Positions 1 to 52,865 of a stretch of 64,000 nt of DNA are shown here, in pieces; within the stretch, counting starts at the first letter, position 1; each line of letters begins with the position of its first letter. The DNA lies in the sequence record OR352945.1; one strand, 5' to 3'. Source of the stretch: Escherichia phage AV115. The position numbers and the translations under genes are program-made. The notes under the pieces were generated by a model that made no database searches, was not told the DNA's origin, and was given only the letters and a program-made list of their open reading frames with translations.

Positions 1-2317
<2,317 letters not shown>

Positions 2318-2344
2318 AAATAAAGCAAATTAAGAGGAATTAAA

Positions 2345-4327: not shown

Positions 4328-4338
4328 TAAGACGCCTG

Positions 4339-4360
4339 ATGGGCTATTTCGGTAGCCCAT
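4339..4360 (+). terminator. stem-loop after gene 18
   Basis: ATGGGCTA-tttcgg-TAGCCCAT, 8-bp stem. Confidence 0.5.
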
Positions 4361-4367
4361 ATAAATA
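4360..4367 (+). promoter_or_regulatory. late promoter TATAAATA (gene 19)
   Basis: Exact TATAAATA directly after gene 18 terminator hairpin. Confidence 0.65.
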
Positions 4368-4439
4368 TACTATATCGTTTAAAAATTAATTCTATGGGCA
4401 TCCGGTTAATCCTAAGCCCATATTACTACAGAGGCTAAT

Positions 4440-4931
4440 ATGTTTGTAGATGACGTAACTCGTGCCTTCGAATCAGGTGATTTCGCTCGCCCTAACCTGT
4501 TCGAAGTAGAAATCTCTTATCTTGGGCAAAACTTTAGCTTCCAGTGTCGTGCTACGGCTCTTCCTGCTGCGATTGTTGAAAAGGTTCCTGTTTCTTATAT
4601 GAACCGTAAAATTAACGTGGCCGGTGATCGTACATTCGATGATTGGACTATTACAGTAATGAACGATGATGCTCATAGCATTCGTCAGAAATTTGTTGAT
4701 TGGCAAGGTATTGCAGCAGGACAAGGTAATGAAATTACCGGTGGTAAACCTGCTGAATATAAAAAGTCTGCTATCGTTCGTCAATTTGCTCGTGATGCTA
4801 AAACGGTCACTAAAGAAGTTGAAATTGTCGGCTTGTGGCCTACTAACGTTGGCGAAGTATCTCTTGACTGGGACAGCAATAACGAGATTGAAACGTTCGA
4901 AGTAACTCTTGCTCTTGATTGGTGGGAATAA
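4440..4931 (+). CDS. 19: tail tube protein
   Basis: 163 aa; MFVDDVTRAFESGDFARPNLF matches T4 gp19. Confidence 0.95.
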   Translation: MFVDDVTRAFESGDFARPNLFEVEISYLGQNFSFQCRATALPAAIVEKVPVSYMNRKINVAGDRTFDDWTITVMNDDAHSIRQKFVDWQGIAAGQGNEITGGKPAEYKKSAIVRQFARDAKTVTKEVEIVGLWPTNVGEVSLDWDSNNEIETFEVTLALDWWE

Positions 4932-4937
4932 TCTGGT

Positions 4938-4953
4938 TGGGGAGAAATCCCCA
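4938..4953 (+). terminator. stem-loop after gene 19
   Basis: TGGGGA-GAAA-TCCCCA, GNRA tetraloop. Confidence 0.45.
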
Positions 4954-4979
4954 GCTTCCCGTGATGACGGAGAAGTCCA

Positions 4980-4987
4980 TATAAATA
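4980..4987 (+). promoter_or_regulatory. late promoter TATAAATA (gene 20)
   Basis: Exact TATAAATA ~29 nt before gene 20 ATG. Confidence 0.7.
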
Positions 4988-5015
4988 TAACTATAATTCC
5001 CATTCGGAGAATACA

Positions 5016-6587
5016 ATGAAATTTAATATCTTAAGTTTGTTTGCTCCATGGGCAAAAATGGACGAACGTGATTACAAAGACCAAGAAAAAGAAAATTTAG
5101 AATCTATCACCGCACCAAAATTAGACGACGGCGCTAAAGAATACGAAGTATCTGAAAATGAAGCACAGCAAACATATAATGCTATGTTTCAGAGAATGTT
5201 CGGTAGTCAAGAACCAGGGCTCAAATCAACCCGTGAATTAATCGATACGTATCGAAATTTGATGACGAACTATGAAGTGGATAATGCAGTCTCTGAAATA
5301 GTTTCCGATGCTATCGTATATGAAGATGATACAGAAGTCGTTTCTATAAATTTAGACAACACAAAATTTAGTCCAAATATCAAATCAATGATGTTGTATG
5401 AATTTAATGAAGTGTTAAATCATTTATCTTTCCAACGTAAAGGTTCAGATCATTTTAGACGTTGGTATGTGGATTCTCGAATTTTCTTCCATAAAATTAT
5501 TGACCCTAAACGCCCTAAAGAAGGTATTAAAGAGCTTCGTCGTTTAGACCCACGTCAAGTTCAATATGTCCGTGAAGTTATTACAACTACTGAAGCAGGT
5601 GTTAAAATAGTCAAGGGTTATAAAGAATATTTCATTTATGACACATCACACGAATCTTATGCTTGTGATGGTCGCATATATGAAGCTGGCACAAAAATAA
5701 AAATCCCTAAAGCCGCGATTGTTTACGCCCATTCTGGTTTAGTTGATTGTTGTGGTAAAAATATCATTGGTTATTTGCATCGGGCTATTAAGCCAGCGAA
5801 CCAATTAAAACTTCTTGAAGATGCCGTCGTAATTTATCGTATTACTCGTGCCCCCGATCGTCGTGTATGGTACGTTGATACAGGTAATATGCCTTCAAGA
5901 AAAGCAGCAGAACATATGCAACATGTTATGAATACGATGAAAAACCGTATTGCGTATGATGCTACTACAGGCAAGATTAAAAACCAGCAGCATATTATGT
6001 CGATGACCGAAGATTATTGGTTACAACGACGTGATGGTAAAGCGGTAACAGAAGTTGACACATTACCAGGTGCAGATAATACTGGAAATATGGAAGATGT
6101 ACGTTGGTTCCGTAATGCGCTTTATATGGCTTTACGTATTCCTATTACCCGTATTCCAAGTGACCAAGGTGGTATACAGTTTGATGCCGGTACTTCTATT
6201 ACACGAGATGAATTGTCATTTGGTAAATTTATTCGTGAGCTGCAACATAAATTTGAAGAGATATTCCTAGACCCGCTTAAAACTAATTTAATTCTTAAAG
6301 GAATTATTACAGAAGATGAGTGGAATGATGAAATAAATAATATTAAGATAAAATTTCATCGGGATAGTTATTTCTCGGAATTAAAGGATGCTGAGATTCT
6401 GGAGCGTCGCATTAATATGCTTCAGATGGCCGAACCATTTATTGGTAAATATATTTCTCACAGAACAGCTATGAAAGATATTCTTCAGATGTCTGACGAG
6501 GAAATTGAACAAGAGGCTAAGCAAATTGAAGAAGAGTCGAAAGAGGCTCGTTTCCAAGACCCCGACCAAGAACAAGAGGATTTTTAA
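5016..6587 (+). CDS. 20: portal vertex protein
   Basis: 523 aa; position and length as T4 gp20; late promoter at 4980. Confidence 0.95.
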
Positions 6588-6823
6588 TGGACGATTTAAT
6601 TCAAGCTATTAAATCAAACGACCTCGTTGCTACTCGAAAGTTTTTTGAAAGTGCAATGGCAGAAAAAACGGTTCGTTTGATTGAAGCACGCAAAGCAGAA
6701 ATCGCTTCTCAATTTTTGATTGAAGGCGAAGAACCTGAAGAAGAAAAGAAAGCTAAAGCTTCGGAAGACGACGCTGATGAAGGCGATGACGACGAAGACG
6801 AAGATGATGAGGACGATGAATAA
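6587..6823 (+). CDS. 67: prohead core protein with acidic C-terminal tail
   Basis: 78 aa, poly-D/E C-terminus; start overlaps gene 20 stop; synteny 20-67-68-21. Confidence 0.8.
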
Positions 6824-7248
6824 TGTATCTTATCCCTGAATCTTATGAATTGGTACTCGAAAATGTCGAAGCACTTATTCCTGAAGCACAGGGCCGAATC
6901 GATGCATTGTCTTCTGCTCTCGATATTGACGATATAAATACTATTATCGAGAACATGCTTGAAACTGAAACGGATTTAGCTGTTGCAATGGCTTCCATTA
7001 TTAATGAAGAACAGTTAAATGAGTTTATCGTTAAACATGTTTCTTCTCGTGGTGAAGTCACTCGCACTAAAGACCGTAAAACTCGTGAACGTAACGCGTT
7101 CCAAACCACTGGTCTTTCTAAAGCAAAACGTAGACAAATCGCTCGTAAGGTCGTTAAAGCTAAAAAAGCTAACCCTTCAGGCCAAGTTAAAGGCTTGCGT
7201 AAGCGTAAAAAAGCTCTTAAACGTCGTAAAGCATTAGGATTAAGCTAA
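6823..7248 (+). CDS. 68: prohead core protein with basic C-terminus
   Basis: 141 aa; K/R-rich tail; synteny. Confidence 0.8.
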
Positions 7249-7889
7249 TGAATAAACCCGAGTTACTTATTGAAACTTGGGGTCAACCCGGTGAGATTAT
7301 TGATGGCGTTCCAATGTTGGAATCTCATGATGGAAAAGATTCTGGCTTAAAACCAGGGCTTTATATAGAAGGTATTTTTCTTCAGGCAGAGGTTGTTAAC
7401 CGAAATAAACGTTTATATCCTAAACGCGTTTTGGAAAAAGCAGTAAGTGACTATATTAAAGAACAAGTCGCAACCAAACAAGCCCTTGGAGAATTAAACC
7501 ATCCACCTCGTGCAAATGTTGACCCTATGCAAGCCGCTATCATTATTGAAGATATGTGGTGGAAAGGAAACGATGTATATGGACGTGCTAGAATTATTGA
7601 AGGCGACCATGGTCCCGGCGATAAATTAGCTGCTAATATACGAGCTGGTTGGATTCCAGGTGTTTCCTCTCGTGGTCTTGGTTCTTTAACCGACACCAAT
7701 AAAGGGTACCGTATCGTGAACGAAGGATTTAAATTAACCGTCGGTGTAGATGCCGTATGGGGACCTTCGGCTCCAGATGCTTGGGTTACTCCTAAACAAA
7801 TATCAGAATCAGAAAATTCGGTGGAAATCACCAAAAACAGTGCTGACGAAGCATTTAAAGCTCTCGCAGAGAGTTTAAAAGCATTATAA
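7248..7889 (+). CDS. 21: prohead core scaffold/protease
   Basis: 213 aa; synteny and length as T4 gp21. Confidence 0.9.
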   Translation: MNKPELLIETWGQPGEIIDGVPMLESHDGKDSGLKPGLYIEGIFLQAEVVNRNKRLYPKRVLEKAVSDYIKEQVATKQALGELNHPPRANVDPMQAAIIIEDMWWKGNDVYGRARIIEGDHGPGDKLAANIRAGWIPGVSSRGLGSLTDTNKGYRIVNEGFKLTVGVDAVWGPSAPDAWVTPKQISESENSVEITKNSADEAFKALAESLKAL

Positions 7890-7892
7890 ATA
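7885..7892 (+). promoter_or_regulatory. late promoter TATAAATA (gene 22)
   Basis: Exact TATAAATA ~31 nt before gene 22 ATG. Confidence 0.7.
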
Positions 7893-7922
7893 ATAATGTA
7901 ATCTAAACCACAGGACACTAAA

Positions 7923-8735
7923 ATGATCAAAGAACAACTTTTGAAAGAAGCTCAGAACATCGAGACTTCAGTTGCTCTTAATAGTGTTTTCGAATCAGTA
8001 GAACTGTCTCCGGACGTTAAAGCTAATTTCAGCACTGTATTCGAAGCCACCGTTAAGCAGGAAGCAGTCAAACTAGCTGAATCTCATATCAAAGCCATCG
8101 CCGAAAAAGCCGAAGAAGAAGTTGAAAAGGCTAAAGAAGATGCTGAAGAGAAAGCTGATAAAAAATTGGCTGAACAAGCTTCTAAATTCCTAGACCATCT
8201 TGCAAAAGAATGGCTCGCAGAAAACCAAATCGCAGTTGATAAAGGCATTAAAGCTGATTTGTTCGAATCCATGCTTGGTGGTCTGAAAGAACTGTTTGTT
8301 GAACATAACGTTGTTGTTCCAGAAGAATCTGTAGATGTTGTAGCAGAAATGGAAGAAGAGCTGGCCGAACATAAAGAAGAAACCGCTCGTTTGTTCGAAG
8401 AAGTTACCAAACGTGATGCATATATCAATTACGTTCAGCGTGAAACCGCTATTAATGAAAGCGTAAAAGACCTGACTGAATCTCAGAAAGAAAAAGTTAT
8501 TGGCCTGGTTGAAGGTATGGATTATTCTGACGCATTTGGTACTAAGTTAACTGCTATTGTAGAAATGGTTAAAGGTTCTACTAAAGAAGAAGCCGCTATT
8601 ACCGAAAGTATAAATACAGTTGACAATGACGCTGCCGGTCTTAATTTTGTTGCCGAAGCAGTTGACACTACCACAACTCAGGTAGAACAGAATTCTAATG
8701 TAAGTTTATATGCGAAAGTCGCATCTCGTTTCTAA
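7923..8735 (+). CDS. 22: prohead core scaffold protein
   Basis: 270 aa, highly acidic coiled-coil-like; late promoter at 7885; immediately upstream of gene 23. Confidence 0.85.
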   Translation: MIKEQLLKEAQNIETSVALNSVFESVELSPDVKANFSTVFEATVKQEAVKLAESHIKAIAEKAEEEVEKAKEDAEEKADKKLAEQASKFLDHLAKEWLAENQIAVDKGIKADLFESMLGGLKELFVEHNVVVPEESVDVVAEMEEELAEHKEETARLFEEVTKRDAYINYVQRETAINESVKDLTESQKEKVIGLVEGMDYSDAFGTKLTAIVEMVKGSTKEEAAITESINTVDNDAAGLNFVAEAVDTTTTQVEQNSNVSLYAKVASRF

Positions 8736-8752
8736 TTTAAAGGTTAACACAA

Positions 8753-10321
8753 ATGACTACTATCAAAACTAAAGCTCAGCTCGTAGACAAATGGAAAGAA
8801 CTGCTGGAAGGTGAAGGCCTGCCGGAAATCGCTAATAGCAAGCAGGCTATTATCGCTAAAATCTTCGAAAACCAGGAAAAAGATTTCGAAGTATCCCCTG
8901 AATATAAAGACGAGAAAATCGCTCAGGCATTTGGTTCTTTCTTGACCGAAGCTGAAATTGGTGGTGACCACGGTTATAATGCTCAGAACATCGCAGCGGG
9001 TCAAACCTCTGGTGCAGTAACCCAAATTGGGCCGGCAGTTATGGGTATGGTTCGTCGTGCTATTCCTAATCTGATCGCTTTTGATATTTGTGGTGTTCAG
9101 CCTATGAACAGCCCGACCGGTCAGGTATTTGCTCTCCGTGCAGTATATGGTAAAGACCCTATCGCTGCTGGCGCTAAAGAAGCTTTCCATCCGATGTATG
9201 CCCCGGACGCGATGTTCTCTGGTCAGGGTGCTGCTAAGAAATTCCCAGCTCTGGCTGCTGACACTACTACTGTTGTAGGTGATATCTATACTCACTTCTT
9301 CCAAGAAACTGGTACTGTATATCTGCAAGCTTCTGCTGTCGTAACACTTGATTCTGGTGCAACTGATGCAGCTAAATTAGATGCAGAAGTTAAGAAACAA
9401 ATGGAAGCTGGTGCACTGGTAGAAATCGCTGAAGGTATGGCTACTTCTATCGCTGAACTCCAGGAAGGTTTCAACGGTTCTACCGATAACCCATGGAATG
9501 AAATGGGCTTCCGTATCGATAAACAAGTTATCGAAGCTAAATCTCGCCAGCTGAAAGCTGCTTACTCTATCGAATTAGCACAAGACCTCCGTGCAGTACA
9601 CGGTATGGATGCTGATGCTGAACTGAGCGGTATTCTGGCTACAGAAATTATGCTAGAAATCAACCGTGAAGTTGTTGATTGGATTAACTACTCAGCACAG
9701 GTTGGTAAATCTGGTATGACCCTGACTCCTGGTTCTAAAGCTGGTGTATTTGACTTCCAGGACCCGATTGATATCCGTGGTGCTCGTTGGGCCGGTGAAA
9801 GCTTTAAATCTCTGTTGTTCCAGATTGATAAAGAAGCAGTTGAAATTGCTCGTCAAACCGGTCGTGGTGAAGGTAACTTCATTATCGCTTCCCGTAACGT
9901 AGTTAACGTACTGGCTTCAGTTGATACTGGTATTTCTTACGCTGCACAGGGTCTGGCTTCCGGTTTTAATACCGACACTACTAAGTCTGTATTTGCCGGT
10001 GTACTTGGTGGTAAATACCGCGTATACATCGACCAGTATGCTAAACAGGATTATTTCACCGTTGGTTACAAAGGCGCTAACGAAATGGATGCAGGTATTT
10101 ACTATGCTCCTTACGTTGCACTTACCCCACTGCGTGGTTCCGATCCTAAGAACTTCCAGCCGGTAATGGGCTTTAAAACTCGTTACGGTATCGGTGTTAA
10201 CCCGTTTGCTGAAAGTTCCCTGCAGGCTCCAGGTGCTCGCATCCAGTCCGGTATGCCGTCTATCCTGAACAGCCTTGGTAAGAACGCTTACTTTAGACGC
10301 GTCTACGTTAAAGGAATTTAA
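8753..10321 (+). CDS. 23: major capsid protein
   Basis: 522 aa; near-identical to T4 gp23 throughout. Confidence 0.97.
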   Translation: MTTIKTKAQLVDKWKELLEGEGLPEIANSKQAIIAKIFENQEKDFEVSPEYKDEKIAQAFGSFLTEAEIGGDHGYNAQNIAAGQTSGAVTQIGPAVMGMVRRAIPNLIAFDICGVQPMNSPTGQVFALRAVYGKDPIAAGAKEAFHPMYAPDAMFSGQGAAKKFPALAADTTTVVGDIYTHFFQETGTVYLQASAVVTLDSGATDAAKLDAEVKKQMEAGALVEIAEGMATSIAELQEGFNGSTDNPWNEMGFRIDKQVIEAKSRQLKAAYSIELAQDLRAVHGMDADAELSGILATEIMLEINREVVDWINYSAQVGKSGMTLTPGSKAGVFDFQDPIDIRGARWAGESFKSLLFQIDKEAVEIARQTGRGEGNFIIASRNVVNVLASVDTGISYAAQGLASGFNTDTTKSVFAGVLGGKYRVYIDQYAKQDYFTVGYKGANEMDAGIYYAPYVALTPLRGSDPKNFQPVMGFKTRYGIGVNPFAESSLQAPGARIQSGMPSILNSLGKNAYFRRVYVKGI

Positions 10322-10350
10322 TGCTTTAACGTTAAAATACATAACCTTAT

Positions 10351-10368
10351 GGGAGACTCCGGTCTCCC
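10351..10368 (+). terminator. intrinsic terminator after gene 23
   Basis: GGGAGAC-tccg-GTCTCCC followed by T-rich tract. Confidence 0.6.
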
Positions 10369-10378
10369 ATTCTTGTTT

Positions 10379-11038
10379 CTATAGCTTAAAACAATCATCG
10401 CGTTCATTAATCCAATTTCTTATAGTTTTTGCGGATACGTTAAAGAATTCGGCAGCGTAATCGTAGTGGTTAAATTCATGGCCTTTAATAGAAATATCCA
10501 CAAATACAAATTTCTTACCTTTATTAGAATTCTTTCTAATTTTTGCTTTATGCTCTTCTGATAGTTTTCTACCTTTAAGATGAGAATCTCTATTTTTATA
10601 AAACTTTTTATTTGCTATAGATTTGTTTTCTCGATGTTCTTTAGATTCTTTAGAACCTAATTTCTTTTTAGATATTTTGGCCCGAACTTCTTCAGTCATA
10701 CCAGCTTTTGTCTTTTCGGATAACATCTCACGATACCCAGGTTCCTGTAAAGCTACTATAACAGGATTACCCTTGCCGCCTAAGGCTGCATTATAAGTAT
10801 CTGTTCTCATGACAAAAGCCTCGTCAACTAGTTCGGCTTCCTTAGCATACATCTCTTCAGATGTTTCGAAATTGAAAAGGATTTCCTTTTTAAAATTCTC
10901 TAAGCCGTATTTCTTTATGGATTTTACTATGTTAACCCCGGAACCCATATAAGAATCGTTAACATCTGTGGTGGCATGGGCTCCAACATAAATCTTGTTA
11001 TTAATGAGATTGGTTATTTTGTAAATTAAATAATTCAT
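10379..11038 (-). CDS. segD: GIY-YIG homing endonuclease (SegD-like)
   Basis: 219 aa; N-terminal IYKITNLINNKIYVG GIY-YIG motif, K-rich C-terminal DNA-binding region; same 23-24 intergenic position as T4 segD. Confidence 0.8.
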   Translation of the reverse strand: MNYLIYKITNLINNKIYVGAHATTDVNDSYMGSGVNIVKSIKKYGLENFKKEILFNFETSEEMYAKEAELVDEAFVMRTDTYNAALGGKGNPVIVALQEPGYREMLSEKTKAGMTEEVRAKISKKKLGSKESKEHRENKSIANKKFYKNRDSHLKGRKLSEEHKAKIRKNSNKGKKFVFVDISIKGHEFNHYDYAAEFFNVSAKTIRNWINERDDCFKL

Positions 11039-11041
11039 ATT

Positions 11042-11308
11042 TTATGCTGCTTTGACACGTCGGTTGATGATATCACGGAAGTCAATACGATTTTCTTGGA
11101 TTTTCAGCCAGTTACCAGATTTGTCTTTGGTATGGGTAGAATATTCACCGTTCCACCAGAAGTCAGTTTCATAAGCCAGGGCTTCGTATTTCTTAACCAA
11201 TGCATTAACTGCATTACCGTTAGGATTGGTACCAAATTTTTCTACCAGAGCTTTGATGTCTTTGTCAAGGTTAGAAAGTGTGGTACGGATAAAGTTTAAT
11301 TTGTTCAT
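11042..11308 (-). CDS. hypothetical early protein
   Basis: ORF track starts at 11323 but SD GAGGAG precedes ATG at 11308 (MNKLN...); early promoter directly upstream. Confidence 0.45.
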   Translation of the reverse strand: MNKLNFIRTTLSNLDKDIKALVEKFGTNPNGNAVNALVKKYEALAYETDFWWNGEYSTHTKDKSGNWLKIQENRIDFRDIINRRVKAA

Positions 11309-11337
11309 TTTTAATCTCCTCATGTTTTGATAGGTCT

Positions 11338-11367
11338 ATAGTAACACGACGCTTTTTGTGTGTAAAC
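11338..11367 (-). promoter_or_regulatory. early sigma70-type promoter (GTTTAC-N18-TACTAT)
   Basis: Minus strand GTTTAC ... TACTATAGAC followed by conserved leader ...CATGAGGAG... and ATG 11308. Confidence 0.6.
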
Positions 11368-11373
11368 CACTTT

Positions 11374-11381
11374 TATAAATA
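11374..11381 (+). promoter_or_regulatory. late promoter TATAAATA (gene 24)
   Basis: Exact TATAAATA ~31 nt before gene 24 ATG. Confidence 0.7.
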
Positions 11382-11411
11382 AAATTATATTCTCAATAAG
11401 GAAAAAATGCA

Positions 11412-12692
11412 ATGAGTAAAATCCAAAAATTATTGCGTGAATCTACAACGTCTACTAGCAACTCAATTGGTCGCCCAAATCTCGTTGCTTTGACTCGCGC
11501 TACGACTAAATTAATATATTCTGACATTGTAGCAACACAAAGAACTAATCAACCTGTTGCTGCTTTTTATGGTATCAAATATCTTAACCCAGATAACGAA
11601 TTCACATTTAAAACCGGTGCTACTTATGCGGGTGAAGTTGGATATGTAGACCGAGAAAAAATTACTGAACTCACAGAAGAATCAAAAGTCACACTAAATA
11701 AAGGTGATTTTTTCAAATATAATAATATCGTCTATAAAGTGTTAGAAGATACACCATTTGCAGATATTCAAGAAAGTGATCTAGAATTAGCTCTTCAGAT
11801 TGCAGTCGTTCATTTAAAGGTACGGTTATTTTCAGATGCAGCGGTAACAAGCAAATTTGAAAGCTCTGGTAGCGAAATTTCTGATGCAAGATTCCAGATT
11901 AATAAATGGCAAACTTCAGTCAAATCTCGTAAACTTAAAACTGGCCTCACAGTTGAATTAGCGCAAGATTTGGAAGCGAATGGATTTGATGCCCCTAACT
12001 TCTTAGAAGATTTGCTTGCAACTGAAATGGCAGATGAAATTAATAAAGATATTCTTCAGTCTTTAATTACTGTATCGAAACGTTATAAAGTTACTGGAAT
12101 TACTGACACTGGATTTATTGACTTGAGCTATGCATCCGCTCCAGAAGCAGGTCGTTCATTATATCGAATGGTGTGTGAAATGGTATCACACATTCAAAAA
12201 GAGTCAACTTATACTGCAACGTTTTGTGTAGCCTCAGCTCGTGCAGCTGCTATTCTTGCTGCTTCTGGTTGGTTAAAACATAAGCCGGAAGATGATAAGT
12301 ATCTTTCACAAAATGCTTATGGATTCTTGGCAAATGGATTACCTCTTTACTGCGATACCAACAGTCCGTTAGATTATGTTATTGTGGGTGTTGTAGAAAA
12401 TATCGGCGAAAAAGAAATTGTAGGGTCCATCTTTTATGCTCCATACACTGAAGGAGTAGATTTAGATGACCCGGAACATGTCGGTGCATTTAAAGTTGTA
12501 GTTGATCCAGAAAGCTTGCAACCGTCTATCGGATTATTGGTTAGATATGCTTTATCAGCAAATCCTTACACAGTAGCAAAAGACGAAAAAGAAGCGAGAA
12601 TAATTGATGGCGGGGACATGGATAAAATGGCAGGACGTTCAGACTTGTCTGTTTTACTCGGTGTTAAATTGCCTAAAATTATTATAGATTAA
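11412..12692 (+). CDS. 24: capsid vertex protein
   Basis: 426 aa; gp23 paralogue at T4 gene 24 position; late promoter at 11374. Confidence 0.93.
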   Translation: MSKIQKLLRESTTSTSNSIGRPNLVALTRATTKLIYSDIVATQRTNQPVAAFYGIKYLNPDNEFTFKTGATYAGEVGYVDREKITELTEESKVTLNKGDFFKYNNIVYKVLEDTPFADIQESDLELALQIAVVHLKVRLFSDAAVTSKFESSGSEISDARFQINKWQTSVKSRKLKTGLTVELAQDLEANGFDAPNFLEDLLATEMADEINKDILQSLITVSKRYKVTGITDTGFIDLSYASAPEAGRSLYRMVCEMVSHIQKESTYTATFCVASARAAAILAASGWLKHKPEDDKYLSQNAYGFLANGLPLYCDTNSPLDYVIVGVVENIGEKEIVGSIFYAPYTEGVDLDDPEHVGAFKVVVDPESLQPSIGLLVRYALSANPYTVAKDEKEARIIDGGDMDKMAGRSDLSVLLGVKLPKIIID

Positions 12693-12693
12693 T

Positions 12694-12719
12694 AAAAAGG
12701 GACCGTAAGGTCCCTTTTT
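12694..12719. terminator. bidirectional terminator between gene 24 and rnlB
   Basis: A5-GGGACC-gtaa-GGTCCC-T5 between convergent genes. Confidence 0.7.
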
Positions 12720-12721
12720 CG

Positions 12722-13720
12722 TTATGATACTAATTCAATCCATGCAGGACGCAGAACATCTTGCACCATTCGGACTAATTCTTTCTTAACAAGATTCGGA
12801 TTATCAGATGATGTTAATACAATACCTTCACGAGAAGTTTCTTCCAGAATATCTTGAACAGTCAATCCCATCACTTTGCCAAAATCTTTTGGAGTTACAG
12901 CCCCAATCTTAGAAATCACATTATTAACACGATTTAATGTAACATAACAAGCTAGAACATCAAGCAAGTTTTTGTCAATTTCGGTTAATGGAACCTGAGT
13001 TTTAATAGGCTTATCAGACTTTTTCTTTTCACTGAATTTAGAGTTCTTGCACTTAATAGCTACACGAGTACCGTTTGGCAGCCATTTAGGGAAACAAGGC
13101 TTCAGAACATAACCTTCCGCCGTATTATCGCCAATAACATTAGCATCAAATACACAATTATTTGCTTCTACAAGGTCTTCTGACGCAGTAGCATTATAAG
13201 CGGCTAAAACGGAATCAAGGTCATTTGGAATCATGATAAGAGAATCAAATGTTCCACGACCAAGCATTGGTGCCATTTTAAAACCGAATTCATTACAGAA
13301 ATCTTGCATTTCATAATCGGTCAAATACGTATTATCACCACTTTCTGTATTGATAAGGATATCGAACACATAAAAATCTTTTTCACCGTAGTCAACACCT
13401 TTCTGGATTCCACCACCAGCGAATTCACCGAATACTTGATATGATACTGCTCGATCTGCATGCATTAATTCCTGAACGGCTTTAATAGCTTTATCATACT
13501 TCTTGAGTACGATTTCATAGCCGTAAAAATCTTCTGCTGGAAGAATAGGGCCTGTGCGCTTGGCGCATGTGACGTTGTCACGTTCAATTATTAACGAGAA
13601 GTTAGTCCCATGGATTTTCTCACGTGCTACCCAAACACCAGTAGTCAAACCATTAGTGTAGAGTTTTTCAATAAACTTAGAGTTGTAGTGGTTTTCAAGA
13701 CTGCTGTATTTCTTAAACAT
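12722..13720 (-). CDS. rnlB: RNA ligase 2
   Basis: 332 aa; nucleotidyltransferase motifs (KIHGTN), T4 RnlB length and position. Confidence 0.88.
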
Positions 13721-13839
13721 AAATCACCATTATAAATAATAATATCAAAATAATTAGCAGAGACTCTATCTCCGACCCGATGTTTAATTTGAATGGATAG
13801 AACCTAGATTCATTATACCATCAAAAAATGTAAAGCATA

Positions 13840-14091
13840 TTAGAACTTGATTTCTATCCAATGTCCGTCACGTTGGTCATGATTAATTTTGTACTGAAAG
13901 CCATTATCACGTAACCACTGCCCGACTTGCTCGGTGATAGTTAAATCATTCTTTGATGGATAGTACGTGAATTGTGTCTGACCTTTGTCAGCGGCTTTCT
14001 CTGCCATCACAGAGAAGTTAGCAATAAAATCTTTCAACAAATTGGCTTTAGTGGCCAGAGCCCTTTCTCTTAATTCCTGTGCAAAACTCAT
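13840..14091 (-). CDS. hypothetical protein
   Basis: 83 aa ORF in rnlB-hoc gap, overlaps next ORF by 4 nt. Confidence 0.4.
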   Translation of the reverse strand: MSFAQELRERALATKANLLKDFIANFSVMAEKAADKGQTQFTYYPSKNDLTITEQVGQWLRDNGFQYKINHDQRDGHWIEIKF

Positions 14092-14294
14092 TTCTTCACC
14101 TTTTTGTTAATCAAACGTTTACGGTATACAACTTTTTCTTTTACTTTAAACTTTGACCGAGCTGTCTCGGCTTTAGTCCATAGTAATCCAACTTCTTTAG
14201 GTTGTAAACCAATTTTTTGAGCAATTTCTACGAATGAAAATCCCGCCTCATGTAATGTATAAACTTCAACTTCAGCTCTCATAATCAATCCCAT
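14088..14294 (-). CDS. hypothetical protein
   Basis: 68 aa ORF, basic C-terminus; co-oriented with rnlB. Confidence 0.4.
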   Translation of the reverse strand: MGLIMRAEVEVYTLHEAGFSFVEIAQKIGLQPKEVGLLWTKAETARSKFKVKEKVVYRKRLINKKVKK

Positions 14295-14363
14295 ATTATT
14301 TGGTTTGTGCCATTATACACATCAATCTCAAGTTGTGTTTTGTATGCTTTAAAAACGAAGAAA

Positions 14364-14377
14364 GGGGCCGAAGCCCC
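14364..14377 (-). terminator. stem-loop after hoc
   Basis: GGGGC-cgaa-GCCCC with T-rich run on minus strand. Confidence 0.55.
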
Positions 14378-14383
14378 TTACGA

Positions 14384-15520
14384 TTATGGATATGTATAGA
14401 TGATACCAGTTTCCAAAGCAGTTTTATGGATGACGTATCCATTACGTGATTCTTGAACATCAACTTCTGGATAGTCTTTCATCATCTTCTGAAGAGTGTA
14501 ACGATGCAGGTAGTATTTACTATCTGGATCGTCAATTTTCCAATCTTTACCTTCTTCAGTCATTTTTTGTATTTCATCCATAACCCACCAACCGCACCAG
14601 ATGTAAGCTGAAGTACGATGTGGAAGAGGATGAACATAAGGTAATTCACCTTCTGGTTCCGGAGCAACTTTATCAGTCACTTGAACTTGACCTTCTGCTG
14701 TAATAGTTTTGCTATCATAGTCATCTGCAGTAACGACGGCAGTCACTTCAATAGTTTGACTTCCAACAGATGAAGTATCAACAGTATATACATTAGTTGA
14801 TCCTTCTACTGGAGAAGAATCTTTCTTCCATGAATAAGTAATTTGTGCCGGTTCCGGTGCACCAGTAACATTAGCTGTAAATGTAGCCGAAGCATCTTGT
14901 TGAACATTAATAGAAGGAGGAGTCAATGTAACCCGTGGATTCATTGTCTTCTTATTAACCGTTAATGATACTTCATTCGAAGTAACTTCCTTTGCATCAT
15001 AATCTGTCGCAGTTACTTGGGCTACACATTTAATTCTTTTTACTCCACTTGTAGTTGGAGTATAGCTAAATGTAGAGTTAGTTTCTCCACCAACCTGTGA
15101 ATCATCTACATACCACTGATACGTAGCAGACGCTCCAACCGGTTGAGAAGCTAAGGCGGCAGTAAATTGAACTGTGGTTCCAATTACTCCGGCTGAAGGA
15201 CTATTGGGAGTTACTGCCAACGTAGTCGTTTGTGTCTTGTTTTGAACTGTGATAGTTGTAGAAGCTTCTGCTGTTTCAGCTTCAGCTTCAGCTTCTGGAA
15301 CTGTATTTGTTGCAACTACTTTAATAGTCTTTTGACCGGCAGGTCCTTTTAGTACATAACTAAAAGTTGCTTCAGCTCCATCTTGCGGAACATCATCTAC
15401 AGTCCAAGCATATGTAATAGTTCCGCCTCCAGTTTCACCACCAGGTGTAGCAGTAAACTGCTGAGTCTGATCTATAACTCCAGTAGGTGTTTTAGGAGTT
15501 ATATCAACTGTAAAAGCCAT
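14384..15520 (-). CDS. hoc: highly immunogenic outer capsid protein (Ig-like domains)
   Basis: 378 aa; repeated Ig-like segments (TxTATDYDAKE..), T4 Hoc length and position. Confidence 0.85.
   Translation of the reverse strand: MAFTVDITPKTPTGVIDQTQQFTATPGGETGGGTITYAWTVDDVPQDGAEATFSYVLKGPAGQKTIKVVATNTVPEAEAEAETAEASTTITVQNKTQTTTLAVTPNSPSAGVIGTTVQFTAALASQPVGASATYQWYVDDSQVGGETNSTFSYTPTTSGVKRIKCVAQVTATDYDAKEVTSNEVSLTVNKKTMNPRVTLTPPSINVQQDASATFTANVTGAPEPAQITYSWKKDSSPVEGSTNVYTVDTSSVGSQTIEVTAVVTADDYDSKTITAEGQVQVTDKVAPEPEGELPYVHPLPHRTSAYIWCGWWVMDEIQKMTEEGKDWKIDDPDSKYYLHRYTLQKMMKDYPEVDVQESRNGYVIHKTALETGIIYTYP
15277..15295 (-). repeat. hexanucleotide tandem repeat inside hoc
   Basis: (AGCTTC)x3+ on plus strand, encoding EAEAEAE in Hoc. 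Confidence 0.5.
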
Positions 15521-15529
15521 AAGTTATCC

Positions 15530-16198
15530 TTATTTTAATGTTACGAAAGAAGAATTACGAGTTTCACGAATTAGAACTGATCCATCGCGATTAATATAAT
15601 AAATTAAGCTAAATAATGTTTGGTGAGCAGAAGCGTGCACAAAACTGGTTGGGCGAGATTTCCAATCTGGAGTTTCGGCTATCCATTGATAAATCCACCA
15701 AGGAACAGTAACATATCCTGGGCCTTTGCCTAATTTAATGAGTGTAGGACTAAAATTTTCAGGCAGAACAAATTTTACTTCTTTATTTACCTCTGTCACA
15801 GGCTCTTTTTCAGATTCAACAACCTGAGTAATTGCTTCTTCGAATTTATCATGGTCGAATTCTTTTTCTTGTTCGACAACTTCTAGTACTTCAACTTGTT
15901 CTGTTGGAGAATCAAACAAAAGAATAGCTTCTTCTTTAACTTCTTCGTTGGTGAAATTAACACCGTCCACATCATCTGCGGCAGTAATTAAATCGGTGAT
16001 AGATAATCCATCAGTTTCAGGTAATGGTTCATCAGCCAGTGCGTTAAGAGCTTCTTCGATATCAATAACAATATTATCGAATGATTTTGTTTTCTTAACA
16101 CTAATGCCAAATTGTTCCGCATATTCAAACAGTTTAGCTTTGGCTTCCTTTTTATCAGAAAGAGCACGTAACTCTTCAATATAGTCTTTATCGATCAT
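15530..16198 (-). CDS. inh: inhibitor of prohead protease
   Basis: 222 aa acidic protein downstream of hoc, as T4 inh. Confidence 0.6.
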   Translation of the reverse strand: MIDKDYIEELRALSDKKEAKAKLFEYAEQFGISVKKTKSFDNIVIDIEEALNALADEPLPETDGLSITDLITAADDVDGVNFTNEEVKEEAILLFDSPTEQVEVLEVVEQEKEFDHDKFEEAITQVVESEKEPVTEVNKEVKFVLPENFSPTLIKLGKGPGYVTVPWWIYQWIAETPDWKSRPTSFVHASAHQTLFSLIYYINRDGSVLIRETRNSSFVTLK

Positions 16199-16211
16199 GA
16201 TATTTCCTCAT

Positions 16212-16219
16212 TATAAATA
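16212..16219 (+). promoter_or_regulatory. late promoter TATAAATA (uvsW)
   Basis: Exact TATAAATA ~30 nt before uvsW ATG. Confidence 0.65.
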
Positions 16220-18281: not shown

Positions 18282-18506
18282 TTATACAACTCTCATATGC
18301 ATATCAATGCCCATATCTTTAGAATAAAAATATTCATCAAGATATCCGGCAAATTTTCCTTTAATATAAAGGACGTCTTCGCCACAAGGATGGTCTGCCA
18401 GGATACGAATATCCTGACGACGTAGACGATACTTTTCCATTAAGAATTTAATTTCAGTTTCAAATTCTTCGTCATTATTAAAGGCATCTTCAATTGAATA
18501 ACGCAT
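18282..18506 (-). CDS. hypothetical protein (uvsY.-1-like)
   Basis: 74 aa ORF directly downstream of uvsY, start overlaps uvsY stop. Confidence 0.55.
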   Translation of the reverse strand: MRYSIEDAFNNDEEFETEIKFLMEKYRLRRQDIRILADHPCGEDVLYIKGKFAGYLDEYFYSKDMGIDMHMRVV

Positions 18507-18974: not shown

Positions 18975-18999
18975 TTATACATAGGTCGCCTTGAAGCAT
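18975..18999 (-). promoter_or_regulatory. middle (MotA-dependent) promoter for uvsY
   Basis: Minus strand aaTGCTTCA (MotA-box-like) 12 nt upstream of TATAAT; ~55 nt before uvsY ATG. Confidence 0.5.
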
Positions 19000-19397
19000 T
19001 ACACTCTATTGCTTGACGCTAACTGAAGTTTAATTTGTTCAATATCGTCAGGGTTGTCTACGACCGAAAATCTAATCTCTACTATAACCGTATAGTCATC
19101 ATATACTGGCGTTACACTTACAGAAAGTTTGTCGATGCGTGGCTCATAGTTACGAACAGCTGCCTGGATATTACGCTCAATCGTATCGGCTGTAAGTGGT
19201 GTCATGTTCTCGAAAAGTTCATCAACCAAATCGCAACCAAATTCAGGGTCGAAGGGGCGTGAGCCTTTTCTAGTTGTCACTATGCCAAGAAGACTATTTT
19301 TAATAGAACGAAGTCCTACAGAACGAGCAACGTCCTTGTTCCAATCCATACGCATTTCTGGGTCGATATCTGAATAAAGTTTATTGATATTAGACAT
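18999..19397 (-). CDS. 25: baseplate wedge protein
   Basis: 132 aa; T4 gp25 length and position. Confidence 0.9.
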   Translation of the reverse strand: MSNINKLYSDIDPEMRMDWNKDVARSVGLRSIKNSLLGIVTTRKGSRPFDPEFGCDLVDELFENMTPLTADTIERNIQAAVRNYEPRIDKLSVSVTPVYDDYTVIVEIRFSVVDNPDDIEQIKLQLASSNRV

Positions 19398-20023
19398 TAT
19401 AGTAACTCAAAGAATTCTTTGAGGCCTCGTATTGTGTGAACGTGTGACGCCCCACATTTGGGACATTTAATAGGGGTTGCCAGATAAATTGATGGCGACA
19501 CCAAAAGATTTTTAATATTGATCATATCATCTTCTGTTATAAGGCCGTAAAGGTCGTTTATTTCTGCTTCAGTTAAATCTTCAACAGGGATGGACTCTCC
19601 ATTGACAAAAACGGCCTCAATACATGAAGCAATCATTAATGCGATATTTTTATCGTCAAATAATTTAGGTTGACGGAACTTAATTTTAATACCACTAAAC
19701 GAATACCAGGGATCGGCCTGTTCATCTAATTGAGTGTGCAATAAATTCATATAGACTTGAAATGAATGCCCACAGGAACAATTCCAGGTGTGTTCTTGAT
19801 TCACTTCACCTAATGAATGTGCCCACAGATTTACCAACAATAACTCGGCTTCTTGTTTAGTCAAGTTTTTAGCATTAGAGCAATTAGTGATAATATTGTT
19901 CACTGCGGATTCAATAGTACCGGTAGCCCGCGCACCTATGAGTCCTAAATATTCTTTTAAAGTAAAGGCTCTACAATTCACTTCTTTATCGCCTAAACGT
20001 ACTGTAAACGTATATTTGTACAT
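19397..20023 (-). CDS. 26: baseplate hub protein
   Basis: 208 aa; synteny 26-25; divergent from gene 51. Confidence 0.85.
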   Translation of the reverse strand: MYKYTFTVRLGDKEVNCRAFTLKEYLGLIGARATGTIESAVNNIITNCSNAKNLTKQEAELLLVNLWAHSLGEVNQEHTWNCSCGHSFQVYMNLLHTQLDEQADPWYSFSGIKIKFRQPKLFDDKNIALMIASCIEAVFVNGESIPVEDLTEAEINDLYGLITEDDMINIKNLLVSPSIYLATPIKCPKCGASHVHTIRGLKEFFELL

Positions 20024-20041
20024 GTTAACTCCTTTATTGTG

Positions 20042-20049
20042 TATTTATA
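20042..20049 (-). promoter_or_regulatory. late promoter TATAAATA (genes 26/25)
   Basis: Plus-strand TATTTATA = TATAAATA on minus strand, ~19 nt before gene 26 ATG. Confidence 0.6.
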
Positions 20050-20053
20050 AATA
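20046..20053 (+). promoter_or_regulatory. late promoter TATAAATA (gene 51)
   Basis: TATAAATA ~18 nt before gene 51 ATG; overlaps minus-strand copy. Confidence 0.65.
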
Positions 20054-20070
20054 ATAGAAAAGGAGTAATT

Positions 20071-20823
20071 ATGGCTAATATAATTCGTTGTAAATTACCG
20101 GATGGTGTTCATCGTTTCAAGCCGTTCACCGTAGCGGATTATAGAGACTTTTTACTAGTTAGAAATGATATCGAACATCGTTCGCCACAAGAACAAAAAG
20201 AAATAATTGCCGATCTGATTGATGATTATTTTGGCGAGTACCCTAAAACATGGCAACCATTTATATTCCTGCAAGTTTTTGCAGGCTCTATAGGCAAAAC
20301 AAAAGTTCCCGTTATTTTCACTTGCCCTAAATGCTCTAAAGAAAAAACTGCACCATTTGAGATATATCAAAAAGAACTAGTCGAACCTGAACTTGATGTT
20401 GCTGGTATAAAAATACGTTTTTCTTTCCCTGAAAAGTTTTATGACAACAAGGCATTAATGATAAGTGAAAACATAAAAGAAATATATTATAATGATGAAT
20501 GGTACCCATGGAATGATTTGACTGAAGAGAACCAAATCCAAGTAATAGAAGCAATAGACATTGACTCGCTCGAGAAGGTTATTGCTTCTATGAATCCTAT
20601 TAATTTGACCCTTAGATTAGGTTGTTGTGAACGACATGTTAAAACATATACTGATATCTTAGAGGTTTTTAAATTGTTAGTTAACCCTGATGAGATTTTT
20701 ACATTCTATCAGATAAACCATTCACTAGTAAAGAGCCAATACACATTGGATTCTATTATGCAAATGATTCCTGTTGAACGTGGTATTGCTTTAACATTAG
20801 TAGAAAAGGACCATAAAAAATGA
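20071..20823 (+). CDS. 51: baseplate hub assembly protein
   Basis: 250 aa; synteny; late promoter at 20046. Confidence 0.85.
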
Positions 20824-21992
20824 AAGTATTCCAACGTCCAGGATATCCTAACTTAAGCGTTAAATTATACCAAGATTATTCGGCTTGGCAAGAAAATAGA
20901 TACGTTGAACTCGCGGCAACAATAACAACTTTAACCATGCGAGATTCGCTATATGGAAGAAATGAAGGGATTCTTCAATTTTATGACACTAAAAACATCC
21001 ACACTAAAATGGACGGTAGACAGATAGTTCAAATCTCTGTTTCAAATTCAAACACACCTCTCCAAGTTAGAACTCGAATTTATGGATGTAGACATTATTC
21101 TGTGTCTGTGGACTCAAAAGGTGACAATATTATTGCAATTGAGCTTGGAACAATACATTCTATAGAGAACCTTAAATTTGGGCGTCCATTCTTCCCGGAC
21201 GCAGGCGAATCTATACGTGAAATGTTAGGTGTCATATACAAAGACCGTGCGTTAATTACTCCGCCAATAAACACTATTAATGCTTATGTTCCTGATATCC
21301 CTTGGACAAGCACATTTGATGATTATTTGGCATATGTCAGAGAATTAGGACTTGCTACAGCGAGTGATAAGTTCGTATTCGTATGGCAAGATATTTTAGG
21401 CGTAAACATGATTGACTATGATACTCTTATTGGTCAAGAAGGCGTTAAGATGGTTGTAGGCGAGCCAAATACCGTAGGTCAGTATATTCAAGAGCTTGAG
21501 TATCCATTAGTATGGGATTTCACCTGGATGACTAAAGCTAACCAATTTACAAGAGACCCTATTAAAAACGCCACGATATTCGCTCATTCATTTTTAGATA
21601 CATCTATTCCGGTTATTGTTACAGGCGATGGTGATAATGCTATTCTTGTGTCAAGATCCGGTGGATATTCCGAAATGACCTATCGTAATGGATTTGAAGA
21701 AGCAAGTCGTCTTCAGACAATGGCTCAATATGACGGATATGCTAAATGCACTACTACAGGCAATTTTAACATAACGCCTGCTACTAAAATTATATTTGTT
21801 GACCAAAAGAACCAATTCAAATCCGAATTTTACGTAGATGAAGTTATTCATGAGTTATCAAATAACAACTCACAAACTCATCTGTACATGTTTACCAACT
21901 CAATGGTGTTAGAACCTGTTAACCCAGTTAAGGTTAAAAATGAACTTAAATCTGATTCTACCTCTAAAGAAAATAATTCTACCACAGTCTAA
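20820..21992 (+). CDS. 27: baseplate hub protein
   Basis: 390 aa; T4 gp27 length and position. Confidence 0.9.
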
Positions 21993-22473
21993 TAAAAAGG
22001 TAATGATTCCTAAATTAGGGCTCAAACATTATAATCTTTTAAAGGACGTTAAAGGTCCTGATGAAAACATGAAAATCTTAGCTGATTCTATTTGTAAAAA
22101 TATGAGTCCCGCAGATTTTGATTTTGCATGTCTACACATATTGGAATTTAATAACAAACTTAAGTCTGAAGTTGAAAAAGATGGATTCACTTATAAACTA
22201 GATGACGTCTATGTATGCCAACGAACAGAATTCCAATTCCAAGGTAATACTTTTTATTTTAGACCACCAGGCAAATTTGAACAATTCGCTACAATCAGTG
22301 AAATGCTATCAAATTGCTTAATAAAAGTTAATGACGAAGAGAAAGAAATTTCTTTCCTTGAGATGCCTGCTTTTGTAATCAAATGGGCAGAAGACCTTTC
22401 GACAACTATTGCTATTCCAGGCCCTAATGGTCCTATTAAGGGTATAGCAGAAATTATTGGATTGCTTGAATGA
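21940..22473 (+). CDS. 28: baseplate hub distal subunit
   Basis: 177 aa; ATG with AAGG SD; overlaps 3' end of gene 27 by 53 nt. Confidence 0.8.
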
Positions 22474-24242
22474 AACCTGAAGAAATGAAATCCATGCGTA
22501 GAAATAAGGTCATTGCCGATAATAAACCACAAAAAGTAGCTGCAACAGCAGCTACCGATTCATTAGAAGCATTGAATGATATTTCATCAAAACTAGACGA
22601 TGTCCAAGCTGCGTCTGAACTCACATCACAAAGTGTAGAAGATAAAGGCAATGGAATTATTGAATCAATTGGAGACTTAAAGAATTCGACAGATAATACT
22701 GCTGAAGGCACAGAGCTTATCGCAGAAGTTATTGAAAAACAAACTGAAGTCACTAAAAGTATAAACGAAGTTTCTAGTGCAATAAGCTCTAAGTTAGACC
22801 GATTAGCTACATTATTAGAGCAAAAATTACAAACATCTACCGCTATTCAAAATACAGGAGGCACCTCTCTTGAAGTAATTGAGAACGCAATACCTGTTAA
22901 AGTGGTTGAGAACGAAACTTCCGATGAGTTGTTTAAAGCATTCCCTACACCTGAAAAGATTGATAATAAGCCAGACGAAGATTTCTTCCCAGCCCCGGTT
23001 CAAGAAAGTGCTAATTCTACTTCCGATTCTAAAGGCGGAATTAGCTTTAAATTGAGCGATAAAATTGCAATGCTCACCAAAACAGTTCAAACCGGGTTTA
23101 ATAAATCAATATCAATTTCAGACAGAATTGCTGGAATGCTTTTCAAATACACTATAACGGCTGCTATTGAAGCAGCAAAAATGGCCGCACTTATTCTTGG
23201 TATTGTTATCGGTATTGATTTATTGATAGTCCATTTCAAATATTGGACAGACAAGTTCACTTCTGCCTGGGATTTATTTGATGAAAACTTTACTAAATTC
23301 TCCGATGAAGCTAAAGAGTGGGGTAAATTCTTAAGTGATATATTCACTTCTATTGACTCTATAAAACAATTGTGGGAAGCTGGAGACTGGGGTGGTTTAA
23401 CCGTTGCTATTGTCAAAGGTGTAGGAACAGCATTAATGAACTTAGGTGAACTAATTCAATTAGGAATGGCTAAACTCTCTGCGTCTATATTGCGTGCTAT
23501 AGGTTTTGGCGATACCGCGGACGAAATAGAAGGACGTGCTTTGGAAGGATTCCAAGAAACTACTGGGAACAAATTAAAGAAAGAAGACCAAGAGAAAGTC
23601 GCTAAATATCAAATGAAACGTGACGATGGGGAATTAGGAACCGTTTCTAAAGGTCTTGATATGTTACAACGCGGCAAAACATTCGTTACTAACTGGGTTC
23701 GTGGTAATGACAATAAAGAAGAGTTTAGTACAAGCGATGAGCGTGCTGCGGAATCAGCAAAATTAAAAGAGTTACCTGAAGAGGAACGTAAAGAGGCGTA
23801 CATAAAAGCGAATGAAACTCGTGCTGCACTGGTTAGATTTGAGGATTATATCGATAAAATCGATATGACTAATCCAGAAAATGCTAAAAACGTCGAGAAG
23901 TCTTATGCTGATTTAAGTAAACTTATTAAAGACCCTGAACTTAATAAAACTCCTGTTGTTAAAAAGGAAATAGATGCTAGATTTGAAAAGCTAAATAATA
24001 AAATGGCTGAAGCCAAAAAGGCTCAGACAACAGTTAAGCCTGAATCTTCGTCTAAATCTCCAGAAGCAAAACAAGTTCAGTCAATAGAGAAAGGACGTGC
24101 TTCTGAATCTAAACAACAGCAACCGGTAGCGGCGATTAGTAACACAAATAATGTCGTCAAAAAGAATACCGTAGTCCAGAATATGACCCCTGTAACAAGT
24201 ACAACGGCTCCTGGAATTTTCCATGCCACCGGTGTTAATTAA
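22470..24242 (+). CDS. 29: baseplate hub / tail length determinator
   Basis: 590 aa, T4 gp29 length and position. Confidence 0.9.
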   Translation: MKPEEMKSMRRNKVIADNKPQKVAATAATDSLEALNDISSKLDDVQAASELTSQSVEDKGNGIIESIGDLKNSTDNTAEGTELIAEVIEKQTEVTKSINEVSSAISSKLDRLATLLEQKLQTSTAIQNTGGTSLEVIENAIPVKVVENETSDELFKAFPTPEKIDNKPDEDFFPAPVQESANSTSDSKGGISFKLSDKIAMLTKTVQTGFNKSISISDRIAGMLFKYTITAAIEAAKMAALILGIVIGIDLLIVHFKYWTDKFTSAWDLFDENFTKFSDEAKEWGKFLSDIFTSIDSIKQLWEAGDWGGLTVAIVKGVGTALMNLGELIQLGMAKLSASILRAIGFGDTADEIEGRALEGFQETTGNKLKKEDQEKVAKYQMKRDDGELGTVSKGLDMLQRGKTFVTNWVRGNDNKEEFSTSDERAAESAKLKELPEEERKEAYIKANETRAALVRFEDYIDKIDMTNPENAKNVEKSYADLSKLIKDPELNKTPVVKKEIDARFEKLNNKMAEAKKAQTTVKPESSSKSPEAKQVQSIEKGRASESKQQQPVAAISNTNNVVKKNTVVQNMTPVTSTTAPGIFHATGVN

Positions 24243-51854: not shown

Positions 51855-52530
51855 AGTTCCATCCAGGCCATTTTGAAGATTTAAGTCTATATGTAACTAA
51901 AGACGCAGAAATATTAAAAACATTTGAAACTTCTTTACACGAGGCGTATTTTACACCATCAATAATTATAGGTTTTTGTTTTTTAATAGTTCTTTCTTTA
52001 GAATGCGGCTTTGAATTTGCTATTCTAAGAGCTTCTTTGGTTGAATCAGGCATCGGCTTATTCGTTTTTCGCCCTTTTCGGACTTTACTCAAGGCCAATT
52101 TGTGAGCTTCAGATAGTTTCTTACCCTTATTAGGTGACGGTATTTTTCTTTCTAGTCTTGTTTTAGATACTTTAGCCTTAGTCTCTTCAGATCTAGGTTT
52201 ACCTAATTTAGAAAGTGAAATAGACCTTTTAGCTTCATCACTTTGTTTTTTACCAGGACCACCTTTACCACCGGGAACTAAGTTATAAGTATCATCTCGC
52301 AAAACAAAATCTTCATTAACCAATTCTGCTTCTTTTTTATAGGCGTCCTTGTCATTATCATATTCATAAAGAATTTCGGTATAAAAATTTTTTAGTCCAT
52401 ATTTAGCTTTGGCCGCTAATATAGCGCGGCCTGATCCAATATACCAATCTTTCTCTTTATGTTTTTTGTGTACGCCTATATAAATTTTACCATTTATTTT
52501 ATTGGTAGTTTTATACACAACGTATTTCAT
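51847..52530 (-). CDS. GIY-YIG homing endonuclease (Seg-like)
   Basis: 227 aa; VYKTTNKINGKIYIG motif, K-rich C-terminal half; ATG overlaps gene 33 stop (ATGA), 3' end overlaps gene 59 start. Confidence 0.8.
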   Translation of the reverse strand: MKYVVYKTTNKINGKIYIGVHKKHKEKDWYIGSGRAILAAKAKYGLKNFYTEILYEYDNDKDAYKKEAELVNEDFVLRDDTYNLVPGGKGGPGKKQSDEAKRSISLSKLGKPRSEETKAKVSKTRLERKIPSPNKGKKLSEAHKLALSKVRKGRKTNKPMPDSTKEALRIANSKPHSKERTIKKQKPIIIDGVKYASCKEVSNVFNISASLVTYRLKSSKWPGWNYD

Positions 52531-52865
52531 AATAAGAAATCTAGCGTATTAGTTTTTTCACCACGAGCAACTGATGGGCGAAGCATGTTTTCGTCAATTG
52601 CTTCGCTTGTAATTTTTTCAACAATTCCTGTAGGAATAAATTTAGCAAATTGTGTTTCTGGAATAGAATTTTCTTCCAAGAAAGCAGTTGTTGCTTCTAA
52701 ATAAGACATACCAAATTGTTCAACCATGGATTCGATAATGAATCCGTTTTCTTGACGGTCAAGCAATTTAGCGATATCATCTTTATCGTGTTTTACTGCT
52801 AATTCTTGTTCAGATAAACCGGCCTCATCAACCGGTTTAATATCACTTAGTGAAAACTGTGTCAT
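52527..52865 (-). CDS. 33: late transcription accessory protein
   Basis: 112 aa; T4 gp33 length and position. Confidence 0.9.
   Translation of the reverse strand: MTQFSLSDIKPVDEAGLSEQELAVKHDKDDIAKLLDRQENGFIIESMVEQFGMSYLEATTAFLEENSIPETQFAKFIPTGIVEKITSEAIDENMLRPSVARGEKTNTLDFLL

Follow-up and report, generated by a model that had tools for sequence, protein, structure and literature searches.

The 47-nt gap between the divergent genes 26 (minus strand) and 51 (plus strand) contains a perfect 12-nt palindrome, TATTTATAAATA, which very probably acts as a compact bidirectional T4-type late promoter, serving genes 51-27-28-29 in one direction and genes 26-25 in the other. We reach this reading by comparing the surrounding 64,000-nt stretch of DNA (hereafter, the window) with the sequences of related phages. 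The preliminary description had placed a palindromic core at 20042-20053, with two late-promoter boxes that overlap by 4 nt, and both points were borne out: the core reads TATTTATAAATA, and exact matches to the box TATAAATA are found at 20046-20053 on the plus strand and at 20049-20042 on the minus strand, with the TATA at 20046-20049 common to both. Two −10-type elements on opposite strands reciprocally overlap in the gap. The further suggestion that one short element would drive late transcription both ways is supported by the invariance of the 12-mer, by a conserved A at position +1, by the fact that these are the only boxes available, and by the promoters predicted for RB69. Divergent 26/51 late promoters are not new, having been described earlier for T4 and RB69. 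Overlapping late promoters from which the T4 baseplate gene cluster is transcribed divergently were reportedly mapped experimentally by Scarlato, Storlazzi, Gargano and Cascino in 1989; the T4 records NC_000866 and AF158101 contain no annotated promoter features.

The window comes from a Mosigvirus, and the region is 99.9% identical to that of Mosigvirus phages such as AV109 and APCEc01. The names 26, 25, and 51, proposed earlier for the adjacent genes, agree with PHROG and Pfam matches and with synteny to T4 and RB69: as in these two phages, uvsY, 25, and 26 lie on one strand, and 51, 27, 28, and 29 on the other. The gp51 of the window is 99.6% identical to RB69 gp51. The products of genes 26 and 51 both match Pfam family PF12322 (T4_baseplate) over the full length, as well as phrog_150, and are paralogues of each other (25% identity over ~205 amino acids, E = 2e-10); the palindromic promoter is thus situated on the axis of a head-to-head duplicated gene pair. 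In a review of the T4 tail, gp26 and gp51 are both described as hub assembly chaperones, and homology between them is not mentioned.

No further consensus late box was found on either strand between positions 18286 and 24619. Apart from the boxes in the 26/51 gap, no late promoter is thus evident for either 26-25 or 51-27-28-29, and, since the next consensus late box is not encountered before 24619, genes 27, 28, and 29 are presumably co-transcribed from the rightward promoter, P51. The positions of these genes and of the promoter elements, together with that of the late-transcription gene 33, are collected in Table 1. Genes 55 and 45 are carried by the near-identical RB69-type genomes.

Table 1. 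Promoter elements, predicted starts, ribosome-binding sites, and genes in the window.
Feature	Position	Strand	Basis
12-nt palindrome TATTTATAAATA, two overlapping late-promoter boxes	20042..20053	.	Sequence; identical in T4, T2, and RB69
Late-promoter box TATAAATA of P51 (positions −13 to −6)	20046..20053	+	Exact match; inside RB69 predicted promoter Pl:118620
Late-promoter box TATAAATA of P26 (positions −13 to −6)	20049-20042	−	Exact match; inside RB69 predicted promoter Pl:118672
Predicted P51 start, A, 6 nt after the box	20059	+	Equivalent column A in 94% of 36 distinct contexts
Predicted P26 start zone, minus strand reads A-T-A	20035..20037	−	Equivalent column A in 89% of contexts
Shine-Dalgarno sequence AAGGAG of gene 51	20060..20065	+	Sequence; GGAG/GAGG conserved in relatives
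Shine-Dalgarno sequence AAGGAG of gene 26 (CTCCTT on the plus strand), mirror of the gene 51 site	20029..20034	−	Sequence; conserved in relatives
Gene 26, baseplate hub protein or chaperone, 208 aa, first of the leftward late unit	19397..20023	−	PHROG/Pfam, synteny
Gene 25, baseplate wedge subunit, second of the leftward unit	18999..19397	−	gp25 family match
Gene 51, baseplate hub assembly protein, 250 aa, first of the rightward late unit	20071..20823	+	PHROG/Pfam, synteny
Genes 27, 28, and 29, baseplate hub	20820..24242	+	gp27 family match for the neighbouring ORF; T4 gene order
Gene 33, late-transcription co-activator, acts in trans	52527..52865	−	tblastn, 99% identical to RB69 gp33

The box TATAAATA occurs 18 times in the window vs 7.3 times expected, a 2.5-fold enrichment that was not reached in any of 100 shuffles. 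The exact 12-mer TATTTATAAATA occurs once (0.05 expected) and was present in 5 of 100 shuffles; given the composition, ~0.17 cases of TATT directly upstream would be expected among 18 boxes. By these figures, the single occurrence is only weakly improbable, and one could suppose that the element is a chance palindrome of an AT-rich genome, or else a functionless relic of the inverted duplication which gave rise to the head-to-head paralogues 26 and 51. What marks the 12-mer as non-random is its placement at the only divergent late-gene junction in the window, together with its full conservation in relatives. A neutral remnant would not stay invariant over more than 12 genera in which gp51 is 38-73% identical and the flanks have diverged, and we find an explanation by chance or by descent alone hardly credible.

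Elsewhere in the window, all ten TATAAATA boxes of the first 17 kb (2310-16219) are on the plus strand, and most of them lie 14-30 nt upstream of long ORFs, as fits a run of co-oriented late genes. A sequence that differs from the palindrome by one mismatch, TATTTTTAAATA, is found at 46554-46565.

The conservation of the 12-mer was assessed in 26/51 regions gathered from annotated phage genomes and IMG/VR contigs representing the sampled Straboviridae lineages; one mis-parsed and one truncated locus were corrected by eye in the tally. The exact 12-mer is kept in 61 of the 70 divergent 26/51 loci. These 61 loci comprise 31 distinct intergenic sequences and belong to more than 12 genera, among them Tequatrovirus, Mosigvirus, Karamvirus, Gelderlandvirus, Jiaodavirus, Roskildevirus, Dhakavirus, Gaprivervirus, Winklervirus, Muldoonvirus, and Acinetobacter phages, with gp51 identity to the window protein going down to 38%. 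All 12 bases are identical in T4 (NC_000866.4, 116450-116461), T2, and RB69. The 26/51 loci of KVP40, Aeh1, and cyanophages were not reached by the gp51-based searches.

To describe the surroundings of the element, we used 36 distinct 72-nt contexts anchored on the 12-mer, within which its invariance is partly by construction, an exact match being the criterion by which a context was included. The bases directly outside the 12-mer are conserved at 35-55%. Further out, 89% of the contexts have a T at the sixth base to the left of the 12-mer, and 94% have an A at the sixth base to the right. As can be seen from their positions, these two +1 columns are mirror-symmetric, 23 bp apart, and located exactly at the starts expected 6 nt after each box. 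The mirrored Shine-Dalgarno blocks are also conserved among the 36 contexts.

The pattern of conservation bears on whether both boxes are used. There might be one working promoter only, the other box being a by-product of the near-symmetry of TATAAATA, with the gene on that side expressed from elsewhere. The TATA in TATAAATA is self-complementary, and four more bases therefore suffice to make a second box, which is expected by composition at ~1% per box; moreover, Krischvirus phages have a consensus plus-strand box without a consensus minus-strand one, and in RB49 only a weak plus-strand promoter is predicted near the 26/51 locus (PMC1524935). However, late promoters have no sequence requirement upstream of the box and no −35 element, while at the 26/51 junction the four outermost bases at either end do not vary among 31 distinct contexts, unlike their neighbours. 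The 16 remaining TATAAATA boxes of the window are preceded by four bases in which no pattern was seen. Since the invariant TATT (20042-20045) lies upstream of the plus-strand box, where late boxes show no preference, it is explained only by the minus-strand box; the invariant AATA (20050-20053) is, as the mirror image of this case, explained only by the plus-strand box. Conservation of an A at +1 on both strands and the lack of any other consensus late box for 26-25 or 51-29 also argue against a single promoter, and we judge this explanation very unlikely.

Several lineages differ from the exact arrangement. In Krischvirus (2 distinct sequences, 4 loci), the gap contains a 13-mer with one extra T, TATTTTATAAATA (~1169-1181 in locus L014). 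The consensus plus-strand box is kept in it, while the minus strand reads TATAAAATA, which is not a consensus box; Krischvirus thus does without the exact arrangement. In RB49, TATTTTATAAATA is also present at a second divergent junction, where an ORF beside rnh stands opposite gene 34 (599-611 in L084). Because of this recurrence, we do not regard the 13-mer simply as a disrupted form of the palindrome.

In Aeromonas phages that are apparently of the 44RR, 25, and AS4 type (loci L015, L017, L060, L062, and L066), a 10-nt palindrome, TATTTAAATA, was found (3 distinct sequences, 5 loci). Each of its strands departs from the T4 box at position −12, and it is not among the predicted 44RR late promoters. 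In one Acinetobacter-phage-like contig (L058; 1 distinct sequence, 1 locus), the 26/51 gap reads CATTTATAAATATTTATA. The minus-strand box in the T4 register is spoiled there (TATAAATG), and a second exact minus-strand box lies to the right; together, the boxes form a 14-nt palindrome, TATAAATATTTATA, in which they are placed face to face. Facing boxes were also seen at a second divergent late junction of RB69, that of genes 4 and 53 (L085, 639-661, outside the window), where they are separate (TATAAATA, 7 nt, and TATTTATA) and where the predicted transcript 5′ ends would overlap by ~5 nt.

A natural control is offered by RB43-like phages, Slopekvirus, and Pseudotevenvirus, where genes 54, 51, 26, and 25 lie on one strand. 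No late box was detected before gene 51 in these loci (L018, L019, L070-L076, and L079; 4 distinct sequences, 10 loci, listed as RB43-like), and nothing but a G+C-rich hairpin with a run of Ts behind it was seen in the gap that precedes this gene (~1172-1201 in L018). The palindrome is missing exactly where divergent transcription is not needed.

The symmetry of the element could be accounted for in another way, if the palindrome were mainly or additionally a site for a dimeric regulator of both operons, e.g., DsbA. The palindrome is indeed perfect, DsbA has been reported on A/T-rich sites overlapping two late promoters, and dsbA is encoded in the window (52843-53130). Yet the affinity of DsbA is micromolar, the protein was without effect in vitro, and dsbA is a non-essential gene, while the conservation at the 26/51 junction ends exactly at the box edges apart from the +1 A, so that nothing is left for a regulator to explain. 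A second natural control is provided by Aeh1, whose late promoter consensus is CTAAATA, and for which an overlapping pair of plus- and minus-strand late promoters, Pl:122785 and Pl:122835, is tabulated (PMC1524935). The sequence at this place was predicted from the published promoter coordinates alone and then confirmed: Aeh1 contains TATTTAGCTAAATA, a 14-nt palindrome of two CTAAATA boxes (L081, 2005-2018; NC_005260, ~122804-122817), between the divergent late genes 4 (minus strand) and a tail-tube-cap gene (plus strand), which have mirrored Shine-Dalgarno sites. The palindrome of Aeh1 follows the promoter consensus of its own lineage, which fits fused promoters and not the operator of an unrelated protein. 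We consider a regulator site very unlikely, though one might exist in addition to the promoters, and the bidirectional promoter remains our preferred reading of the 26/51 element.

The T4 late box occupies positions −13 to −6 relative to the start (PMC1524935). The exact +6 base on the leftward side (20036) is a T on the minus strand of the window, and the start of P26 is therefore probably 20037 or 20035. The predicted divergent starts would then be 22-24 bp apart in the window; their equivalents in T4 are NC_000866.4 positions 116467 (plus strand) and 116444 (minus strand). The box-to-ATG leaders measure only 17 and 18 nt, and both include AAGGAG. The two Shine-Dalgarno sites mirror each other (CTCCTTT ... 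AAAGGAG), and within 20021-20076 read-through RNA is predicted to form a hairpin that pairs both Shine-Dalgarno arms, with a folding energy of −12.7 kcal/mol (z = −3.2) for the plus strand and −7.8 kcal/mol (z = −1.8) for the minus strand. In single-strand folds, the strongest helix is that between the two Shine-Dalgarno arms, and the inner stem across the 12-mer is short and weak. Late transcripts would keep the ribosome site free, since both predicted starts are inside the hairpin loop. A Shine-Dalgarno hairpin across the 26/51 gap resembles the known arrangement of T4 gene e and I-TevI.

Two other roles considered for the region were rejected. The 12-mer itself is not expected to act as a cruciform or hairpin, because no stable stem can form in a 12-nt A/T palindrome that has no loop. 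As for a σ70 promoter, only one match was found nearby, a weak one within gene 51.

The gp55-containing RNA polymerase is known to read the late box as a non-template single strand, flipping bases −12, −9, and −8. In the late open complex, the DNA strands are separated between −12 and +2, gp33 and the gp45 clamp being located at the upstream end, and the polarity of late activation is set by clamp orientation. At the 26/51 junction, host RNA polymerase with the σ-like gp55, gp33, and the gp45 sliding clamp would open the palindrome in either orientation. When the plus-strand box (20046-20053) is read, melting would extend over 20047-20060, and 51-27-28-29 would be transcribed from a start near 20059. 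When the minus-strand box (20049-20042) is read, melting would extend over 20048-20035, and 26-25 would be transcribed from a start near 20035-20037. With the TATA common to both boxes and ~23 bp between the starts, both open complexes would need the same stretch of DNA, so that transcription could begin in only one direction at a time.

A more elaborate reading joins four features of the locus, and as a whole we regard it as unlikely. First, the element may be more than a fortuitous overlap of two promoters, namely a toggle. At each firing, its direction would depend on how the gp45 clamp is oriented and, hence, on the nicked strand or the direction of the fork. Second, steric exclusion between the two complexes may then determine in what proportion the hub transcripts 26-25 and 51-27-28-29 are made. 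Third, the mirrored Shine-Dalgarno sites may silence read-through RNA, such that only transcripts started in the loop are translated. Fourth, the palindrome may lie at the centre of symmetry of the inverted duplication from which paralogues 26 and 51 arose.

As a discovery, the 26/51 element matters little, being a textbook-era T4 feature of which both promoters are already listed for RB69. Its value is that of a clean natural bidirectional promoter that relies both on an oriented sliding clamp and on a σ-like factor of the phage. The comparative series (the invariant 12-mer, the 10-, 13-, and 14-nt variants, the Aeh1 version matching its own consensus, and loss of the boxes in lineages with co-directional genes) amounts to a ready-made mutational set on the choice of promoter direction.

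Compared with the 26/51 pair of T4, the window has orthologous divergent genes, the identical 12-mer, and a similar leader layout with AAGGAG on both sides, while the flanking bases differ and the gap is 47 nt long vs 50 nt in T4. The gp51 proteins of the T4 group are ~72% identical to that of the window, and the promoter element itself is without difference. A T4 dRNA-seq preprint reports 150 start sites in this phage, and Geiduschek and Kassavetis note in their review that not every listed late box has been shown to be active in vivo. The intergenic region of RB69 is base-for-base identical to that of the window. Late promoters Pl:118620 (plus strand) and Pl:118672 (minus strand) were predicted independently in RB69 with an HMM by Nolan et al. 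in 2006 (PMC1524935, Additional file 5), and the palindrome, at RB69 positions 118641-118652, is inside both of them; these are predictions listed in a table, and we found no discussion there of the overlap or its conservation. The TATTTAGCTAAATA element of Aeh1 is likewise made of two lineage-consensus late boxes on opposite strands, fused at a divergent late junction, but it differs in the genes served, in the box (CTAAATA), and in being a 14-nt palindrome in which the 8-mers overlap by 2 nt.

A close parallel outside of phages is provided by the bacterial bidirectional promoters with a symmetric −10 element described by Warman, Grainger and colleagues (PMC10268837, PMC12825309). In these σ70 promoters, which are enriched between divergent genes, the starts are 7-25 bp apart, with 18, 10, and 23 bp being common spacings, and binding in the two directions is mutually exclusive. 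The 26/51 element shares with them the overlapping −10-type elements on opposite strands, and the spacing of 23 bp predicted here falls within the 7-25 bp range. It differs in having a gp55-type 8-bp box with no −35 element and activation by an oriented sliding clamp, in a symmetry that is perfect instead of approximate, and in that both products are mRNAs of one assembly pathway. The 26/51 element would thus work like the members of this class without being a σ70 member itself, since its box is the gp55-type 8-mer.
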